Both the position numbers and the translations under genes were made by a program. The notes under the pieces are model-generated. The model saw only the letters and a program-made list of their open reading frames with translations. It searched no databases and was not told the origin of the DNA. A stretch of DNA of 64,000 nucleotides from an uncultured Alphaproteobacteria bacterium (GTDB lineage: Bacteria; Pseudomonadota; Alphaproteobacteria; Rs-D84). The stretch is from positions 3,104-67,103 of the forward strand of contig CALXXD010000005.1 in assembly GCA_944392595.1 (NCBI GenBank). Direction: 5' to 3'. Positions 6,032 through 49,932 of the stretch are shown piece by piece. How positions within the stretch are numbered: the first letter of the stretch is position 1; the number at the start of each line of letters is the position of its first letter.

Positions 6032-7612
6032 ATGAATATGTATCAGTTACTGGAACGGACAACCGAAAAGTGGCCGGATAACTTATTTCTGGTGCGCGAA
6101 AAGGTTACGTTCAAGGAATTCATAGATTTGGTTCGTGCGCGTGCAACATCACTGCATGCGGCGGGCGTAAAGCAGGGCGATGTGGTTGGTATTTTGGCGC
6201 ATAATATACCGCAATTCCCAATCACATTGTTTGCAATTTGGTTTTTGGGTGGAACTGTGTTATTGCTGGATACGAATTTGACCCCGTTCGAGTATGATAA
6301 TATGACTCAGATTGCGGGATGCAAATTTGTATGTGCAGAACCGTCGTTTTTCTTTAAAACCAAAAAATTCGAATTTTATGACATTACAAAAAAAGACGAA
6401 AAAATAGATGCACGATTGAAACCGGCTGCGCTGGAATCAACCGATGTTGCAACGTTGTCATTTACGTCTGGATCAACCGGTACGCCAAAGGTTGTGCCGC
6501 TGACGCACTTTAATTTGGTGGAATGTTCGAATTCGTTGGAAGATATGCATCAGTGGATTAAGCCTGGATTTATTATGTATGGATTTTTGCCAATGTATCA
6601 TATTTTCGGGTTCGCAGTCGAAATATTGGCAACATTGCACTATGGTGCGGGAGTTTTATTACAGCCCAGCATAAATCCAAAGGAAATTATGGCCGATTTC
6701 AAAGAATTCCGGCCGCATGTTATCCCGGCTGTCCCCCGATTGTGGGAGGTTTTACGCAACCGCATTATCGATAATATCAAAGCACAACATAAATGGTGGT
6801 TGGCGTCGTTTGTTCTGAAATATGGCAAATTGTTACAGAAAATCGGACTGGGGAAATTGGTAAGAAAGGTTCAAGAACCAGTGTTGGCCGTATTTGGCGG
6901 ACGCGCAAAATTGCTGATTGCGGGTGGTGCTGCCACCAAGCCCGAGGTGGAAACTTTCTATGAACGTTTGGGATTAACGTTTATCCAGGGCTATGGTTTG
7001 ACTGAAACTGTGGGGCCAATCTGTATTTCCAAACCGACCAAAAAACGATTCCCGTTTGCATTTGGTGGGCCAACAACAAACAACGAATGCGAAATTCGTG
7101 ATAAAAACGAAGATGGCGTCGGTGTTCTGTGGGTGCGCGGACACCAGGTGTTCGGTGGATATATGAATAACCCCGCCGTGAATTCCGAAGTGTTCGACGA
7201 ACGCGGATTCTTTAATACCGGTGATATGGTGACCATGGATAAAAACGGCGAATTGCACTTTGCCGGTCGTAAAAAGCAGGTTATCGTGCTGGATTCCGGT
7301 AAAAACGTGTATCCCGATGAGTTAGAGGGTATGTTTATCGAAATCCCGGGCGTTAAAAATGTCGCTGTGTTCGAGCACAAGGTAAAAGGCAAAACCGTTA
7401 CATACGGTGTGTTCAGTGTCGAACCTGATATGACCATGGAAAAATTGTCTGCGGCCATTGCCCAGGCGAATAAAAAGGTTGCGTCATATAAATGGGTGAC
7501 GCACTTTGCCATGACGACCGAAGATTTACCCACAACCAGCACGCAAAAGGTTAAACACCACGTCGTGCGTCAGAATTTGATAGAGGGTAAATATCCCATA
7601 CGGCATGAATAA
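6032..7612 (+). CDS. AMP-dependent synthetase/ligase (long-chain fatty-acid-CoA ligase-like)
   Basis: 526 aa. AMP-binding signature SFTSGSTGTPKVV, plus later GYGLTE and TGD motifs. Confidence 0.85.
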   Translation: MNMYQLLERTTEKWPDNLFLVREKVTFKEFIDLVRARATSLHAAGVKQGDVVGILAHNIPQFPITLFAIWFLGGTVLLLDTNLTPFEYDNMTQIAGCKFVCAEPSFFFKTKKFEFYDITKKDEKIDARLKPAALESTDVATLSFTSGSTGTPKVVPLTHFNLVECSNSLEDMHQWIKPGFIMYGFLPMYHIFGFAVEILATLHYGAGVLLQPSINPKEIMADFKEFRPHVIPAVPRLWEVLRNRIIDNIKAQHKWWLASFVLKYGKLLQKIGLGKLVRKVQEPVLAVFGGRAKLLIAGGAATKPEVETFYERLGLTFIQGYGLTETVGPICISKPTKKRFPFAFGGPTTNNECEIRDKNEDGVGVLWVRGHQVFGGYMNNPAVNSEVFDERGFFNTGDMVTMDKNGELHFAGRKKQVIVLDSGKNVYPDELEGMFIEIPGVKNVAVFEHKVKGKTVTYGVFSVEPDMTMEKLSAAIAQANKKVASYKWVTHFAMTTEDLPTTSTQKVKHHVVRQNLIEGKYPIRHE

Positions 7613-11153: not shown

Positions 11154-11174
11154 ATTTTTTATGCTGCATTTTTA

Positions 11175-11183
11175 TGATATAAT
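11175..11183 (+). promoter_or_regulatory. extended -10 promoter box TGATATAAT
   Basis: TTTATGATATAAT lies 25 nt upstream of the ATG at 11209. The same box recurs at least 9 times in the window. Confidence 0.55.
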
Positions 11184-11208
11184 TCGTTCAAATAAGTATG
11201 GGGGAAAA

Positions 11209-12186
11209 ATGAAATCTGTTTTTATAGGTTTGGTTGCCGCGATGGTTGTGTGTGGCGCGAATGCTGCGGATTTTTCTGCGCTGGATGTGTCAATTCAAAA
11301 TGTACGCGCGGCGTGTAACGGTTTGTCTGGGCAAATGGATGAATTAAAACGTATGGCCGGAATTAACACCGCTGTGACCGGTGTCGGAACGTTGGCCAGT
11401 GGTGGCGCAACCGTTGCAGGTGTTGTGAAATCAAACGTCGATGCCCAGGCAGATGAAATCCAAGATTGGTTGGATCGCTTTAAGAATCAGCCAACCGATA
11501 CATCGGGGAATCCGAAAATCGACATGGCGGTAATAGATAAAGAAGAACTGATGGTTATGGTTGCAAGTTACGGGCCAATTGGGGCCGTGGTTGGCGGTGC
11601 GGATGAATCTGAAATTGCCGCCAAAAAAGACGAGTTGGATCAGAAAACACAACAATCAAAGACTTTGGGTAATGTGCGTACTGGATTGTTGGCGACCGGT
11701 ACGGTTACAAATATCGCAGGCGCGGTAATCGCCGGTAAAAATCGCACCCAGGGCGGATTAAGCGAAATGATTAACGATTGTATCGATGCTGTGCGGGCGT
11801 TGGAAAATGCCAAGATGCAGGCCCATGTTGCGGGCACAGTCACGGCCGATGATGTCGCGCGGGCGGACAAGATTATTGACGCGTGCGGTGGATATAAAAC
11901 TGTGGATTTGTCGGTTGTGGATAATCGCGCCAAAGGCGCAACGATTTCCAGCGGAATTGGTGCGGCAACTGGATTGATTGGTACAATTACGTCCGGCGTT
12001 GCGAATTCAACGCAAACGCGCGGGGGCGACGAAGTGCGTGAAAAGAATCTGAATACTGCATCAAATGTTTTGGGTGGTGCGACAACCGCTGCGTCATTGA
12101 CGGCGACTATATTTAACGCAACCCAGATAAACGCAGTTAAAAACTTGGTACAAGTGGCAGACCAGTGCGAGGGAGCATTAAGATGA
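11209..12186 (+). CDS. secreted Gly/Ala/Thr-rich protein with glycine-zipper-like segments (hypothetical)
   Basis: Signal peptide MKSVFIGLVAAMVVCGANA/AD. Small-residue tracts include GINTAVTGVGTLASGGATVAGVV and SSGIGAATGLIGTITSGV. The stop overlaps the next start (ATGA). Confidence 0.6.
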   Translation: MKSVFIGLVAAMVVCGANAADFSALDVSIQNVRAACNGLSGQMDELKRMAGINTAVTGVGTLASGGATVAGVVKSNVDAQADEIQDWLDRFKNQPTDTSGNPKIDMAVIDKEELMVMVASYGPIGAVVGGADESEIAAKKDELDQKTQQSKTLGNVRTGLLATGTVTNIAGAVIAGKNRTQGGLSEMINDCIDAVRALENAKMQAHVAGTVTADDVARADKIIDACGGYKTVDLSVVDNRAKGATISSGIGAATGLIGTITSGVANSTQTRGGDEVREKNLNTASNVLGGATTAASLTATIFNATQINAVKNLVQVADQCEGALR

Positions 12187-17186: not shown

Positions 17187-17195
17187 ATGTCCGCT

Positions 17196-18380
17196 ATGGC
17201 ACGGGATAAATATATTTCTGTTAAAAGCGGGGTGAATGGGTTTTCGTTTGCAAACCTGGGGTTATTTACCGGGTTCGCAGACGGTATTTATAATGCGGTT
17301 TATTCCCTGGTTTTGATGGAAATTTTTGCAAATTCCGCAGTTGTTGGTGTCTATGTCGCGATTTATGCTGCGTTTTGCATGATTGTTGGTTTGTTCGCGA
17401 ACGAGATTTTTCGCAGATTTTCCAAAGTGCGCGTTTTCTTTGCGGCAACGCTGTTTTTGGCGGCCGGATACGCGATGATGAGTTTTTCTGTGCGTACAAG
17501 TACTTTTGTTATGTTGGATTATGCAACGGGTGTGGCGGTAACGCTGGTCGGGATTTTAATACCGTTGTTTATGTCTGATTTTTCAGGGCGCGTTGGTATG
17601 GCGCGATTAAATTCGAGATATCATTTGTGGATGAATGTGGGCGCGCTGTTCGCGCCAACAATCGCGGTCGCAATCGCAAACCAATTCGACAACAGGGCGG
17701 CGTTCTTTGCGGCGGCGTTGATTTATTTTGCGTGTTGGATGGCGTTTAATTTATTCCGTGTCGCGCAAAGTGATAAAAAAATTACGCCCGTCAATCCGCG
17801 GCGAACGTTGCGGGCGTTGATAAAAAATGCAATTGCGTTTTTTAAAACACGTGGAATGGCGCGCGCGTATGCGGTTAATTTTGGGTACTATGCTTTGCGC
17901 GCAATGCGGTATTTATATGTGCCAATTGTCGTTATTGAAAATGGTTTTTCAAAAGATACGCTGGGTTGGGTTTTGACGTTGGGAATTGTTCCTTATTTAA
18001 TATTGTCGGATGCAATGGCGCACTTTGTACGTAAAGATGGCAAGAAAAAATGGCTGATGTTGGGATTTGTGTCGTTTGCGGTAATGTCTGTGTTGGCAAC
18101 GTTCGCAACTGGTTTCCCATTGCTGATTATATTTGTCGCGTGGCAGGTATCGGGTGCGTTGATGGAATCTGTGCATGATTTGTTATTCTTTGATGGTACA
18201 ACGCGCGCGGCACAGACCAAGTTTTATGGCGTGTTCCGCACCAGTGTTAATTTACCCAATATTATTGCACCACTGTTGGCGGCGATGTGTATCACGGCCT
18301 TTGGCGGAACGTCCGCCGTTTGGGTTGTGACCGCGGTTATTGGGGCGATATCAGCCGCACTGGTTGTTGCCAAAAAATAA
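17196..18380 (+). CDS. MFS transporter
   Basis: About 394 aa with about 12 hydrophobic spans. Start set to the second ATG because of the promoter position. Confidence 0.7.
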   Translation: MARDKYISVKSGVNGFSFANLGLFTGFADGIYNAVYSLVLMEIFANSAVVGVYVAIYAAFCMIVGLFANEIFRRFSKVRVFFAATLFLAAGYAMMSFSVRTSTFVMLDYATGVAVTLVGILIPLFMSDFSGRVGMARLNSRYHLWMNVGALFAPTIAVAIANQFDNRAAFFAAALIYFACWMAFNLFRVAQSDKKITPVNPRRTLRALIKNAIAFFKTRGMARAYAVNFGYYALRAMRYLYVPIVVIENGFSKDTLGWVLTLGIVPYLILSDAMAHFVRKDGKKKWLMLGFVSFAVMSVLATFATGFPLLIIFVAWQVSGALMESVHDLLFFDGTTRAAQTKFYGVFRTSVNLPNIIAPLLAAMCITAFGGTSAVWVVTAVIGAISAALVVAKK

Positions 18381-27220: not shown

Positions 27221-27245
27221 AAAAACCGGCATTAGCCGGTTTTTT
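27221..27245. terminator. bidirectional rho-independent terminator
   Basis: AAAAACCGGC-ATTA-GCCGGTTTTT overlapping the serS stop codon. Confidence 0.8.
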
Positions 27246-28524
27246 AGTGTTTCCCACCAATTTTTGTGCGACCACCCATCAAAGGCTGCAATTTTTTGGG
27301 AATATTCACACTGCCGTCGGCGTTTTGATGTGTTTCCAATAATGGAACCAACGCGCGTGGGACGGCGATGCCTGTGTTATTCAATGTCGCACAGAATTTT
27401 ACCGCGTTCGTTCCGTTTTCACGATAACGGGTGTTTGTGCGCCGCGCCTGGAAAGTGCCGATGGACGAACAACTGCCCAGTTCTTTATACGCGTTTTCCG
27501 ATGGAACCCATGCCTCGACATCGTTCATTTTAACTTTGTTAAATCCCATATCGCCCGTCGAATTTGCAATCACACGATATGGCAATTCCAAATCAGCCAC
27601 AACATCACACAAATTGTTCAATAACAATTCGTGCATTTCGTCCGATTGTTCAGGCGTGCAAAATACATATTGTTCAACTTTGTTAAATTGATGGAATCGC
27701 GCCAGACCACGCGTGTCGCGGCCTGCGGCGCCGGCTTCTTTGCGGAAACACGGCGAAAATCCGGCGTATTTAATGGGCAGTGCGCTTTCGGGTAAAATTT
27801 CACCGCTGTGCAGCGAATTCAATACGATTTCAGCCGTGCCCGCCAGGCATCTGTCTGTGCCCGCCAACATAAACACGTCGTTGTTCATAACCGATAAATC
27901 TGCGCCCATAAAGTGACCTGCATCAAATATTGTTTGAGGTTTGGTAATCGATGGGCATTCTATGAAAGTAAATCCGCGCGAAATTAATTTCTGGATAACG
28001 TATGTTTCAATCGCCAATTGCAATTCAGCGGCTTCGCCAATTAAACAGTATGTGCGTGTGCCGCAAATTTGTGCGATTTTTTCAGGCATCCACCATCCGT
28101 TCATATCCAATAAATCCCACTGCGCGCGCGGGGTGAAATCAAAATTCCGCGGGGTGCCGACACGTTTTACTTCGGTATTATACGAATCGTCGGGACCAAC
28201 GGGTGCCGATGCGTCTGGTATTTGTGGTACGCGGTGCAGCAAGTCATTTAACTTTTCTTCTTTTTCCGCCAACTCAGCCAAATCAGCCGCAATCTCGGCA
28301 CCAATTTGTTTGGATTTTTCAATCAATGGCGCTTTGTCTGTGGCGGTCGGGATTTCGCGTGTGATTTTATTTTTTTCGGCCGTCATGTTTTGCGTTACTG
28401 TTTTCAGTTCGCGTACGCGCGCATCCAGTGCCAAAATTTCATCAACATGGTCATCAAAGCCTTTGACCCGGCATGCGTTTTTTACAATATCTGGGTTTTC
28501 ACGAATAAATTTTATATCCAACAT
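27244..28524 (-). CDS. serS: serine--tRNA ligase
   Basis: 426 aa. MLDIKFIRENPD with an N-terminal coiled coil and class II core motifs (FRKEAGAAGRDTRGL, GTAEIVL). Confidence 0.95.
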   Translation of the reverse strand: MLDIKFIRENPDIVKNACRVKGFDDHVDEILALDARVRELKTVTQNMTAEKNKITREIPTATDKAPLIEKSKQIGAEIAADLAELAEKEEKLNDLLHRVPQIPDASAPVGPDDSYNTEVKRVGTPRNFDFTPRAQWDLLDMNGWWMPEKIAQICGTRTYCLIGEAAELQLAIETYVIQKLISRGFTFIECPSITKPQTIFDAGHFMGADLSVMNNDVFMLAGTDRCLAGTAEIVLNSLHSGEILPESALPIKYAGFSPCFRKEAGAAGRDTRGLARFHQFNKVEQYVFCTPEQSDEMHELLLNNLCDVVADLELPYRVIANSTGDMGFNKVKMNDVEAWVPSENAYKELGSCSSIGTFQARRTNTRYRENGTNAVKFCATLNNTGIAVPRALVPLLETHQNADGSVNIPKKLQPLMGGRTKIGGKH

Positions 28525-28595
28525 AGTTGTATTCCTTTGATAAAAGATATTATTAATAAAATGATTATATTATATATGTATTATATTATGAACAG

Positions 28596-28655
28596 TTAAA
28601 AGCGCACCCCAAACGGGGATGATGACAAATAAAAAGATACAAATACATATTTCAT
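28596..28655 (-). CDS. candidate serS leader peptide (19 aa, MKYVFVSFYLSSSPFGVRF)
   Basis: Hand-translated mini-ORF 71 nt upstream of serS. It has 4 Ser codons, with the run TCA TCA TCC entering the hairpin CCCC-GTTT-GGGG. Same length and layout as the thrS mini-ORF. Confidence 0.55.
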   Translation of the reverse strand: MKYVFVSFYLSSSPFGVRF

Positions 28656-28665
28656 AACATCCGCT

Positions 28666-28694
28666 ATTATATTGCTATCCGATGAAAAAATCAA
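28666..28694 (-). promoter_or_regulatory. promoter TTGATT-N17-TATAAT, with 10 nt to the leader ATG
   Basis: Read on the minus strand: -35 at 28694-28689, -10 at 28671-28666, leader ATG at 28655. Confidence 0.5.
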
Positions 28695-42224: not shown

Positions 42225-43436
42225 ATGAAAGTAAAAGGTTCTTTGATTGGGATGATGGCTGCGTTGTTCGTAATGCCGGCGATGGCTGCGACAAATTTTG
42301 GCGCGTCTGCGGCATCCAGTGCCGATTTAAGTGGTATGCCGGCTGTGCGCGAACGTACCCAGGTGAATTATGAAAAATATGAAACGCGTACTTCGCAAAA
42401 AACATACGATGCAAACGATGGACGCAATATGTATTATACCCAGCCCGCGAATCGCAGTGCGCTGTACAAGCAATATGCAGGGGCAGATTCAAATACAAAT
42501 GTTCGCACGTCGCGTGCGGAAACTTATCGGTCCGAATTAAAGCGCAAATATTATCTGGCGCATCCGTTTTTCCAACCCACCAAGGGCAAGTTTGGTTCGG
42601 TGACTGATTTGGCATATAATATGAATTCATACGATGTGTCTTTGGTACCTTTGCCGACCACAGATTGGATGAGTGATAATGCCTTTGCATGGGATATGGG
42701 GCAATTTTCCATTAAAGAAGATTTAAGTTTTGGTATCACCGATACAGTGGCCATTTTGGCGACGGCACGTTTTGATGTGTCTGATTATAAAGCCGATTGG
42801 AAAAATCCAGAAACCCCAGATGACAAAATGGATGACAGTGATTTCAGTTTGTTGGGATTGGGTGCCCAGTGGCGTTTTGTTGATACGGCCGATTGGATTG
42901 CGACTGCATCCGCGTATTATCAGTATCAACCCGATTCATCCAACAATTTCGTTTTGGATTTAAAGGCTGGGTATAAAGTCAGCACTTCGACCATATATGG
43001 ATTGGTTCGTGGTTGGTATCTGAATTTCGATGGAAATTCATACGGTAATGCCATTGTCGGTAAAAATACCGATGGTGTTGAAGATATGGCGTATTTGGTA
43101 TATAACGACGATGCCAAAAATGTATTCTTTGTCGAAGGCGGATTGGGTGTGTTCAGTGTGTTGGACGAAGATTGGACACTGAATGTAGAGGCCGTATTCG
43201 GTAACTATGATTGGCATAATCAATTCAGTGCCAAGGCCGCAATCGGTTGGCAGCCGAATGAATGGTTCGCATTGAATCTGTACGGCAAGATGGCGTTGTG
43301 GGATTCTGCGGATGGTGATGAATTTATGTTCTGGCAAACGAATTCACGTAACAACACGTTCGTACCGTCGGCAACCGCAACAATCGACAATTATTCCGAA
43401 GCATCGGTTGGTGTCCAGGCGATATTTATGTTCTGA
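42225..43436 (+). CDS. outer-membrane beta-barrel protein (porin-like, hypothetical)
   Basis: Signal peptide ...VMPAMA/AT, alternating aromatic/hydrophilic strands, C-terminal ...VQAIFMF. Confidence 0.65.
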   Translation: MKVKGSLIGMMAALFVMPAMAATNFGASAASSADLSGMPAVRERTQVNYEKYETRTSQKTYDANDGRNMYYTQPANRSALYKQYAGADSNTNVRTSRAETYRSELKRKYYLAHPFFQPTKGKFGSVTDLAYNMNSYDVSLVPLPTTDWMSDNAFAWDMGQFSIKEDLSFGITDTVAILATARFDVSDYKADWKNPETPDDKMDDSDFSLLGLGAQWRFVDTADWIATASAYYQYQPDSSNNFVLDLKAGYKVSTSTIYGLVRGWYLNFDGNSYGNAIVGKNTDGVEDMAYLVYNDDAKNVFFVEGGLGVFSVLDEDWTLNVEAVFGNYDWHNQFSAKAAIGWQPNEWFALNLYGKMALWDSADGDEFMFWQTNSRNNTFVPSATATIDNYSEASVGVQAIFMF

Positions 43437-47946: not shown

Positions 47947-49932
47947 ATGAAAGTATATGTAAATTATGATGATGCGCGTTGGCGCAAATATAAAATAGAT
48001 TTTGAACGTATCGCAAATGCGGCCGCTTTACGGTGTGCGCCCGATGCCGAGGTATCGATTATTTTAACCAATGATAAAAATATTCATAAATTAAATCGCG
48101 AATATCGCGGAATTGATCGGCCAACCAATGTATTATCGTTTGAATTGGGCGATGATATTTTGCTGGGGGATATTTATATATCTTTTGATACCGTCCAGCG
48201 CGAGGCGGCTGATGAAAAGATTTCAATTGCGGAACATACGGCGCACATGGTTGTGCATGGCGTATTACATTTACAGGGGTATGACCATATAAAAAATCGT
48301 GATGCAAAAAAAATGGAAAAGGCCGAGGTTGAAATCTTAAAAACTTTGGGAATAAAAAATCCCTATGCGCCGGAATCATGCGCATACGCGTGTCCTGGGG
48401 GTGAAATTTTATCGTTTTTTTATCGCATAAAAATTCGTCCGAATGGTGTTGCGCAATACTTAATTATGGCTTTGTTGGGGGCGGTATCTGCGCTGGGGTT
48501 TGCACCGTTTAATTTATGGTGGGTAACCGTTATTGCGATTGGATTGGCGTATTGGTTAATTGTGCGCGCCGCACCACGTAATGTATGGCGGGCATTTTTG
48601 CAAATTTTACCATTCAGTGCGGTATATGCGGTGGCTATGTTTTGGTGGGTGACAAATTCGATATATGTTGTGCCTGAATTGGCGGCGCAATTTGCAATTT
48701 GGACGGTGCCTGCGTTAATCGGTATTGGAATTTTGGGTGGTATCATTTTTGCAATTCCGTTTGTCGTGGCATCGCGTATATGCACGTTTCCGGCGCACAG
48801 GGCGATTTTGTTCGCTGCATCTTGGACAATTGTTTTGTGGTTGCGCGAATGGTTGCTGACCGGTTTTCCGTGGAATCCGATTGCAAATATCACCATGACA
48901 ATGCCGATTGTTGCGAACGCTATGTCGCTGTGGGGGGCGTTGGGCGCAACGTTTGTAATTATCGGTTTGATTGCGTCCGTGGTTGAATTATTAACAAATC
49001 GTCGTGACAGACATGTTTTGGGCGTTTTTATTGTTTTTTGTATCTTGATGTGTGTTGGGCTGATATACGGATATAAAAATATTCACATGTCCCATCGCGC
49101 AAATAATGCAAGTCCGGTTATTCGTATTGTGCAACCCGCGCGCAGTGCAGTGCAAAAGGCAACGCATTCACGGGCGGATGCAGTGCGTAATGCAAATGAA
49201 AATGTGCGTATAATGGCCAAAATTGCGAATGCACCGGGGAATCCAGATATTATCGTTTTCCCCGAGACTTCATATCCATTTGTGATTGTTGATGGCGATA
49301 ATATGCCGTTGGGACAAATATTGGGACGCGATGTTATCGTTGGCGTTAATTCTTTTTCAGATGGTAAATTATATAACTCGATGGTGGTGGCGTCGCCCAA
49401 TGGCGCGATTGATACCATATACAGCAAATCGCACCTTGTGCCGTTTGGTGAATATCGACCGTTTGGTGACATTATTCCAACGCCCGGCCAGTTATCGCGT
49501 GGTGCGGGGCCAACAATTATAAGCGTTGGTGATTTTTCGTTTGCGCCCGCGATATGTTACGAAATTATATTTTCAGATTCTTTGGTGCCGCGCGATGCAA
49601 TGCCGGATGCAATTATAAATATCACAAATGATACTTGGTTTGGTGCGACGCCTGGTACGTATCAACATTTGGATATGGTGCGGCGGTATGCGATTGAATC
49701 AGGTTTGCCAATCGTGCGCGCCAATTATTCGGGCATAAGTGCATTTGTTGCGCCCGATGGGGCGGTGTCCGGCGAAATCGGAATTGGGGACGCGGGGTAT
49801 TCAGATGGCGTTGTGATGGGCGCACATATTACGCCATATCGCGCAATTGGGCGTGATGGGTGGATGATTATTATATTGCTGTTTTCGTGTATATGCACGT
49901 TTGTGCCGGGGGCGACGAAAAAACGTAAATAA
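47947..49932 (+). CDS. single ORF fusing rRNA maturation RNase YbeY (aa 1 to about 150) to apolipoprotein N-acyltransferase Lnt (aa about 165-661)
   Basis: YbeY: TNVLSFE...HMVVHGVLHLQGYDH. Lnt: a multi-TM N-terminal part, then the E-K-C triad contexts IIVFPETSYPF, YSKSHLVPFGEY and APAICYEIIF. There is no stop codon and no plausible in-frame restart between the two parts. Confidence 0.8.
   Translation: MKVYVNYDDARWRKYKIDFERIANAAALRCAPDAEVSIILTNDKNIHKLNREYRGIDRPTNVLSFELGDDILLGDIYISFDTVQREAADEKISIAEHTAHMVVHGVLHLQGYDHIKNRDAKKMEKAEVEILKTLGIKNPYAPESCAYACPGGEILSFFYRIKIRPNGVAQYLIMALLGAVSALGFAPFNLWWVTVIAIGLAYWLIVRAAPRNVWRAFLQILPFSAVYAVAMFWWVTNSIYVVPELAAQFAIWTVPALIGIGILGGIIFAIPFVVASRICTFPAHRAILFAASWTIVLWLREWLLTGFPWNPIANITMTMPIVANAMSLWGALGATFVIIGLIASVVELLTNRRDRHVLGVFIVFCILMCVGLIYGYKNIHMSHRANNASPVIRIVQPARSAVQKATHSRADAVRNANENVRIMAKIANAPGNPDIIVFPETSYPFVIVDGDNMPLGQILGRDVIVGVNSFSDGKLYNSMVVASPNGAIDTIYSKSHLVPFGEYRPFGDIIPTPGQLSRGAGPTIISVGDFSFAPAICYEIIFSDSLVPRDAMPDAIINITNDTWFGATPGTYQHLDMVRRYAIESGLPIVRANYSGISAFVAPDGAVSGEIGIGDAGYSDGVVMGAHITPYRAIGRDGWMIIILLFSCICTFVPGATKKRK

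Follow-up and report, generated by a model that had tools for sequence, protein, structure and literature searches.

How a bacterium with a genome of about 1 Mb might match the synthesis of an aminoacyl-tRNA synthetase to the supply of charged transfer RNA (tRNA) is the question raised by the region upstream of serS, the gene for seryl-tRNA synthetase, in a 64-kb stretch of DNA (64,000 nt of contig CALXXD010000005.1, hereafter the window) from a Candidatus Enterousia-like alphaproteobacterium of the order Rs-D84. Between a promoter and the Shine-Dalgarno sequence (SD) of this gene lies a tiny open reading frame (ORF) in which a run of Ser codons leads directly into a short hairpin, and a sister arrangement with Thr codons precedes thrS elsewhere in the window. 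Comparison with relatives indicates that such an element is very probably a functional leader in which the cognate codons are read. The region upstream of serS is probably a cis-regulatory leader that, by way of translation of the tiny ORF, gauges how much charged tRNA-Ser is available; for action by way of occlusion of the hairpin (hairpin 1), joined to premature termination or pausing, the chances appear a little short of even. In the window the serS leader and its gene comprise:

28666..28694, minus strand: promoter P1, TTGATT-N17-TATAAT, with 10/12 consensus matches
28596..28655, minus strand: leader mini-ORF, 19 codons plus stop, encoding MKYVFVSFYLSSSPFGVRF; conserved in 41/41 complete hairpin-bearing relatives
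28635..28637, minus strand: a further Ser codon, TCT (codon 7), upstream of the run and only partly conserved
28617..28625, minus strand: the candidate regulatory Ser codons TCA TCA TCC (codons 11-13), from a position tally in 39 leaders
28605..28621, minus strand: hairpin 1, in its minimum free energy register CAUCCC/GGGGUG, -7.4 kcal/mol by folding
28596..28604, minus strand: T-rich tail CGCTTTTAA, holding the leader stop codon (28598-28596)
28539..28595, minus strand: AT-rich, G-poor spacer, with no conserved structure as judged from sequence and alignment
28531..28538, minus strand: Shine-Dalgarno sequence of serS, AAAGGAAT, an AAGGA-type motif conserved across relatives
27244..28524, minus strand: serS, seryl-tRNA synthetase (TIGR00414, E = 1.1e-118, full length)

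The promoter, ATG, ORF, Ser codons and hairpin were all part of the original prediction, made from the letters of the window, and every one of their coordinates was verified on the minus strand. The codons of the mini-ORF are ATG AAA TAT GTA TTT GTA TCT TTT TAT TTG TCA TCA TCC CCG TTT GGG GTG CGC TTT TAA. Its ATG at 28655 follows the -10 box by 10 nt, leaving the ORF nearly leaderless, and there is no conserved SD. The core of hairpin 1, CCCC-GTTT-GGGG at 28618-28607, is the only stable local structure in the serS leader, and its arms are made of Ser (UCC), Pro (CCG) and Gly (GGG) codons, with the final Ser codon of the run, TCC (codon 13), contributing the first two C of the 5' arm. Directly 3' of the hairpin stands TGCGCTTTTAA, and the leader stop codon falls within the T-run. 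The spacer of 71 nt given earlier holds for the whole stretch between the stop codon and the start of serS (28595-28525), whose ATG is at 28524; to the SD, where it had been said to end, the distance is 57 nt. A promoter-like TTCATA-N17-TATAAT is found inside the spacer (28592-28564, minus strand), and a thioredoxin reductase gene (trxB) is divergent from serS. An ATG TTA TGA mini-frame at 28652-28660 (minus strand) overlaps the leader ATG in this genome only; relatives have GTGTTATG or similar at that site, and the mini-frame is probably meaningless.

Evidence that the ORF and the hairpin belong together comes from two sets of relatives. A SerRS-based scan of species-representative genomes gave 80 loci at 81-99% identity, all from uncultured gut or rumen alphaproteobacteria and many of them named Candidatus Enterousia; together with the window these make 81 species-level sequences, and 41 leaders have complete upstream sequence. 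For thrS, 80 loci came from metagenome contigs scanned with ThrRS. Codon positions were tallied over 39 distinct serS leaders and 19 distinct thrS leaders, and reading frames over 41 serS and 20 thrS leaders, where ORFs of at least 15 codons were counted in the two non-cognate frames. A C4-loop-G4 hairpin stands 60-140 nt upstream of serS in 42 of the 81 species-level sequences, the window counted, and in all 41 complete serS leaders an ATG-started ORF spans it in the Ser-Ser-Pro-x-Gly frame. Measured from the ATG closest to the hairpin, this ORF has 17-21 codons (26 from in-frame ATGs farther upstream). The cognate frame is open in 41/41 serS leaders and the other two frames in 11 and 4; for the thrS leaders the corresponding numbers are 20/20, 0 and 0. 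Together with the scarcity of the hairpin motif noted below, these counts place the leaders well outside what chance would give.

What is conserved within the serS ORF is concentrated at its end. The first half, U-rich and encoding a hydrophobic N-terminus, shows essentially no conservation, and the peptide tails read SSPFGV(R/Q/L)(F/I) or SSPLGE, each followed by the stop. Counting back from the Pro codon, position -1 is TCC in 39/39 distinct leaders and position -2 is a Ser codon in 39/39 (TCA 34, TCG 5); Ser occupies position -3 in 16/39, while codon -5 is AGT in 14/39 and codon -7 is TCT in 14/39. The upstream signals recur as well: a TTGATT/TTGAAT-N17-TAnnnT box is found in most serS relatives, most leaderless ones included, and in most species that have a serS leader the ATG comes 9-10 nt after the -10 box.

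The second leader of the window, upstream of thrS (57388-59121, plus strand), repeats this layout with a different amino acid:

57206..57304, plus strand: thrS sister leader, from P1 through the ORF stop, conserved in 19/19 usable relatives
57206..57234, plus strand: thrS P1, TTGACA-N17-TATTAT, from the sequence
57245..57304, plus strand: thrS leader ORF, MKKYFIFFVTTTTTTPTGV plus stop, from the sequence, with its ATG at 57245, 10 nt past the promoter
57288..57299, plus strand: thrS hairpin 1, CCCCC-AC-GGGGG, from a motif scan
57314..57329, plus strand: thrS hairpin 2, TGCGGT-tttt-ACCGCG, present in 20/20 thrS leaders

This leader occurs in 19/19 relatives that have a ThrRS identity of at least 69% and usable upstream sequence, and it was found in none of the relatives with a ThrRS identity of 62% or less. 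The pattern among those that have it is M..F.IF-TTTTTT-P-(L/A)-G-V followed by the stop, with CCCC(C)-N3-GGGG(G). Thr is encoded at positions -1 to -3 in 19/19 (-1 ACC; -2 ACA/ACG; -3 ACT/ACA/ACG/ACC) and at positions -4 to -6 in 14-17/19, for a total of 3-6 Thr codons per leader. Residue composition follows suit, with 20% Ser and 2.7% Thr in the serS leaders and 33% Thr and 0.3% Ser in the thrS leaders. Whether the codons adjoining the hairpin begin with T or with A agrees in every case with the synthetase encoded downstream. A test set beforehand, whether the identity of the codon run follows the synthetase, gave a clear answer: Ser in 39/39 serS leaders and Thr in 19/19 thrS leaders, with synonymous variation at the third base. 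As a separate observation, a segment of the window thrS ORF, UUUCUUUGUCA (57262-57272), is complementary to the thrS SD region, UGACAAAGGAA (57371-57381), on the plus strand over 11 bp including one G-U (z = -5 versus shuffles); the pairing is not kept in relatives and may be a lineage-specific extra layer or chance.

The two leaders also recognize each other in profile searches. The top matches of a serS-leader profile hidden Markov model in thrS loci are 13 thrS leaders (best E = 6.5e-5), and a thrS-leader profile, searched with nhmmer, matches serS leaders in register at E values of 0.03-2. Because the profiles match reciprocally, the serS and thrS leaders can be described as one architecture, and they are probably of one lineage; Ser (UCN) and Thr (ACN) codons are one base apart. 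The original prediction had placed both in one regulatory family, and the shared architecture and the reciprocal matches in register agree with it. Outside these two loci the hairpin motif is rare. The motif C>=4-N2-6-G>=4 has two sites only in the 64-kb window, the serS and thrS leaders, and in 0.89 Mb of relatives' DNA the C4-N-G4 motif occurs almost only at the same two leaders; a motif scan of the window and these 0.89 Mb of relatives' loci gave no further family members. Candidates at loci L044 and L045 ending in N-A-P-x-G were rejected as leaders and are ordinary typA terminators. The window gene gltX (54890-56467, plus strand), which shares 8 nt with the ORF ahead of it (54337-54897), lacks a leader; not every synthetase gene in this genome carries the device.

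The distribution of the serS leader across relatives bears on both its age and its autonomy. In a neighbour-joining tree of SerRS, the leader occurs in three large clades, which fall to either side of the midpoint root. It is missing from a whole clade of 27 species in which serS stands directly behind a co-directional trxB, from one 10-species subclade that retains the divergent synteny, and from L036 and L037, which are nested within a leader-bearing clade. This pattern is fitting for an ancestral leader with some three losses. In L036 and L037 (~2960-2975) a clean deletion of ~125 nt took out the ORF, hairpin 1 and the downstream hairpin 2/P2 segment described below, leaving P1 and the SD intact. 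Because P1 alone remains there, it appears to be a genuine serS promoter with the leader lying inside its transcript, and the leader, as these alignments have it, is a discrete module inserted in the P1 transcript. By the original prediction, a missing mini-ORF or hairpin in close relatives that keep the serS synteny would count against it; 12 relatives share the trxB/serS synteny and have no leader, an absence read here as secondary loss, of which the deletion in L036 and L037 is one example. Its expectation that the mini-ORF and hairpin form a functional unit is supported by their occurrence in 42/81 species, by a frame kept despite free N-terminal divergence and by the coherent tree distribution.

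How such a leader might act depends on the structures that its RNA can form. In RNAalifold predictions for both alignments, hairpin 1 is the only predicted pairing. Its C4:G4 core is essentially invariant among 41 serS and 19 thrS leaders, with one mismatched (C-U) row per alignment, whereas variation is seen at the loop residue, at the residue that follows Gly and in the length of the loop, which ranges from 3 to 5 nt and includes a 3-nt in-frame insertion. There is no covariation in hairpin 1 in either the serS or the thrS alignment; coding and pairing constrain the same bases, since the arms are also Ser or Thr, Pro and Gly codons. The whole serS leader does not fold more stably than shuffled sequence (z = +0.78). 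In both families the 12 nt past the hairpin-1 stem contain 52% T, as compared with 28-35% T in the rest of the spacer. A reference for real terminators in the clade is the canonical intrinsic terminator of typA (L044 6713-6745; L045 ~6745-6775), which in relatives has the same CCCC-GTTT-GGGG core on a longer stem, with T7 directly adjoining and a stability of -15.3 kcal/mol. Hairpin 1 is weaker than this reference and, together with the T-rich tract behind it, is probably no more than a weak terminator or a pause site; it is not a canonical terminator.

A second hairpin is more variable in its occurrence. Hairpin 2 is present in 20/20 thrS leaders, where it has 8 arm variants that all still pair and starts 6-11 nt after the stop, and in 24/41 serS leaders; neither the window serS leader nor its subclade has it. 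Hairpin 2 was rejected as a universal part, given its absence from the window leader and from 17/41 serS leaders in all, and since the window serS leader is without it, it is not essential. The same segment also reads as TTGCGN-16/17-TA...T (P2) in 16/20 thrS and 15/41 serS leaders, with the hairpin-2/P2 spacing maintained even where the loop shortens (L098; thrS loci L081-L134, serS loci L011-L045), so that it might serve as an RNA hairpin, as an internal promoter P2 or in the two roles together. Folds in which the C arm was masked leave hairpin 2 unaffected.

Known types of RNA control were considered against these structures. A classical 2:3 antiterminator was rejected, as masking of the C arm yields no conserved alternative pairing and the consensus fold contains hairpin 1 only; because no antiterminator exists, the leader is not textbook attenuation. 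Sequestration of the SD by the leader ORF was rejected as a general mechanism, the duplex energies being on average no better than those of shuffled sequence (mean z -0.25 across 41 serS and 20 thrS leaders); ORF-to-SD pairing is strong in a few cases such as the window thrS leader, and z is -0.6 for the window serS leader. A T-box or other known RNA family was likewise rejected: Rfam has no match in the window at the gathering score and none for either leader at E <= 10, T-box and Thr_leader included. The window contains no tRNA genes.

The favoured reading combines these features in the following way. The transcript from P1 would have its 5' end only a few nt before the ATG of the 19-codon ORF. 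With Ser-tRNA scarce, a ribosome would dwell on UCA UCA UCC and cover the C arm, and with that arm inside the ribosome hairpin 1 would not form, allowing transcription or the messenger RNA (mRNA) to continue into serS. With Ser-tRNA plentiful, the ribosome would clear the ORF and be released, hairpin 1 would form, and the hairpin together with the T-rich tract would pause or weakly terminate RNA polymerase, so that fewer P1 transcripts would reach serS. The thrS leader would be the same device with ACN codons replacing UCN. The sequences show the anatomy and its conservation, the kept frame, the specificity of the cognate codons and the lack both of an antiterminator and of general SD sequestration. 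Translation of the ORF, the opening of hairpin 1 by stalling, its function in switching serS off and the sense in which the system responds are the steps that we infer. Control of hairpin 1 by ribosome dwell is suggested because the cognate run is always fused to its 5' arm, the last codon giving two of the four C. The charging of tRNA is a sensible signal because Rs-D84 relatives, with genomes smaller than ~1 Mb, are without amino-acid biosynthesis (PMC12306168).

A number of observations weigh against this reading. Hairpin 1 is short, at -7 to -12 kcal/mol, in the window serS leader CGC separates its stem from TTTT, and a simple terminator scan calls neither the serS nor the thrS leader. When the C arm is masked during folding to imitate a stalled ribosome, no conserved partner is left for the G arm, and there is no 2:3 antiterminator. 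The enrichment of Ser is modest, with only two codons invariant; the promoter-like boxes downstream of the ORF (28592-28564 in the window, P2 in relatives) could transcribe serS independently; and roughly half of the relatives do without the leader. Geometry adds a further difficulty. Expressome structures place a minimum of ~34 nt between the ribosomal P site and the active site of RNA polymerase, and at this spacing a ribosome would barely reach the C arm while RNA polymerase is at the T-tract of hairpin 1. Purely co-transcriptional intrinsic termination would thus be kinetically awkward and, if anything, would favour the opposite polarity. The OFF step may therefore depend on Rho, on a long-lived pause or on events after transcription.

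Rho-dependent attenuation as in tnaC is an unlikely alternative, although it would lend the leader a physiologically sensible polarity with no need of alternative structures. The pyrimidine-rich, G-poor ORF RNA, once freed, would load Rho and lead to termination in the spacer, with hairpin 1 acting as the pause; in the ON state a ribosome stalled at Ser codons would mask the RNA and melt the pause hairpin, and serS would be transcribed. The scheme suits a leader with neither a canonical intrinsic terminator nor an antiterminator, fits the window serS leader with its hairpin 1 only, and agrees with an ORF RNA of 8-11% G and a spacer of 7-11% G (7% across serS leaders) with no conserved structure. 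The RNA is however U/A-rich rather than C-rich (13-16% C), the free upstream RNA is short (~60 nt), rho was not found among the window genes scanned, the window being a small part of the genome, and the fusion of the codon run to the hairpin arm is left unexplained. The ORF overlaps the putative termination signal, spanning hairpin 1 in its entirety and having its stop codon in the T-rich tract, as would be looked for in either a Rho-type or a coupling system. In a pyrBI-like coupling of opposite polarity, a fast ribosome would push RNA polymerase through and a Ser-starved one would lag, letting hairpin 1 stop transcription; the A site of a collided ribosome is estimated to fall on the cognate run with RNA polymerase at the T-tract. 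This would nonetheless imply positive feedback on an essential synthetase, while characterized leaders and T-boxes of synthetase genes all induce at low charging (PMC1262725, PMC2965389), pheST among them, and a general control by coupling needs no cognate-specific run. Such an arrangement seems quite improbable here.

Control after transcription might instead exploit the position of the ORF, which begins within a few nt of the 5' end: a stall there could unmask the serS SD, as in erm and cat leaders, or protect the mRNA from 5'-end-dependent decay, and stalling in the ermC leader is known to stabilize mRNA. Pairing to the SD in the window thrS leader (11 bp, z = -5) would be in keeping with the first of these, but it is not conserved (mean z -0.25 in both families, -0.6 for window serS), the SD is 57-95 nt distant across unstructured RNA, and hairpin 1 would be without a role, all of which makes this a decidedly poor candidate. 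It is very improbable that there is no sensor at all, the ORF lying by chance over a structural element or encoding a small protein and serS being transcribed from internal TATAAT-like boxes. The promoter-like boxes downstream of the ORF, the missing leader in about half of the relatives and the z of +0.78 for the whole-leader fold can be cited in its favour. A chance ORF would hardly keep its frame in 41/41 and 20/20 leaders despite sequence turnover, or have Ser and Thr follow serS and thrS perfectly; the peptide outside the run is not conserved, which speaks against a functional small protein, and P1 is kept where everything else has been deleted.

If the reading through ribosome dwell at hairpin 1 is taken to its simplest form, the leaders might represent a minimal modular two-state switch without an RNA antiterminator, in which the ribosome on the cognate NCC/NCN codons is itself the anti-hairpin element and specificity is reprogrammed by the first codon base (UCN <-> ACN), letting one ancestral leader spread between synthetase genes. 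This is offered as a tentative idea that is more doubtful than the sensing function itself. Were it true, the same design may serve other amino acids with NCC codons (Ala GCC, Pro CCC), and in the reduced-genome alphaproteobacteria of Rs-D84 the aminoacyl-tRNA synthetase genes could be under such control in general.

Control of synthetase genes by leader peptides has precedents, with attenuators known for pheST and predicted for leuS, trpS2 (Streptomyces) and hisS paralogues (Bacillus) (PMC1262725, PMC2965389). The leaders of E. coli pheM-pheST and of leuS, trpS2 and hisS paralogues share with those described here a short ORF rich in cognate codons, through which charging is sensed by ribosome speed. 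They differ in that pheST-type leaders have a terminator and a mutually exclusive antiterminator, whereas the serS and thrS leaders have no antiterminator and a codon-built hairpin of 4-6 bp is their only universal structure; the serS and thrS ORFs are, moreover, nearly leaderless, and serS and thrS are new targets for such control. As in a classical attenuator, a short leader ORF lies between promoter and regulated gene (for serS, between P1 and the SD) and carries cognate codons (Ser in 39/39 at -1/-2, Thr in 19/19 at -1 to -3). Since leader ORF and cognate run are present and the antiterminator is absent, the element is filed outside the classical attenuators. From its sequence features it is most likely a previously undescribed leader-peptide control of aminoacyl-tRNA synthetase genes and not a classical attenuator. 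The original prediction knew of no leader-peptide control of serS, and the literature searched likewise gave no description of it for serS or thrS.

Other systems resemble the leaders in part. In Firmicutes, serS and thrS are known to be controlled by T-boxes, and in E. coli thrS is controlled by an mRNA operator. The Firmicutes T-boxes act on the same genes and presumably respond to the same signal, the charging of the cognate tRNA; a T-box is a protein-free RNA that binds tRNA directly, whereas the sensor proposed here is a putative translated ORF with no T-box match. In E. coli thrL, ACC Thr codons pair with the Gly codons that close the ORF, in what corresponds to a 1:2 hairpin, and the peptide ends T...G. 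The likeness thus lies in a C-rich Thr-codon run that pairs with Gly codons of the same ORF, although thrL controls a biosynthetic operon and forms 2:3 and 3:4 structures together with a strong U8 terminator, none of which is found in the serS and thrS leaders. In pyrBI (pyrL) and tnaC, too, a leader ORF runs through or up to a termination signal and the ribosome, not an RNA antiterminator, decides the outcome; pyrL, however, senses uridine triphosphate by way of RNA polymerase pausing and tnaC senses free Trp by nascent-peptide arrest at the stop, and neither uses runs of cognate codons.

The proposed control would have consequences beyond this genome. Without a dedicated regulator, an uncultured, amino-acid-auxotrophic symbiont of ~1 Mb may tune two synthetases by means of ~70 nt of RNA. 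The Ser/Thr pair would constitute a natural swap of specificity by single-nucleotide codon changes, which opens the principle of sensing to direct test. A leader that has no antiterminator runs counter to the four-segment model of the textbooks and may provide a very small design for synthetic amino-acid sensors.

Among other genes of the window, the ORFs at 42225-43436, 17187-18380, 11161-12186 and 60729-62334 (plus strand) and at 59339-59980 (minus strand), with lengths of 200-400 aa, match nothing in NCBIfam at E <= 1e-10, as is typical of poorly characterized reduced genomes. An ORF of 661 aa at 47947-49932 (plus strand) matches YbeY over residues 16-137 and Lnt over residues 223-606, and is an apparent ybeY-lnt gene fusion that would join an rRNA maturation RNase to an apolipoprotein N-acyltransferase.

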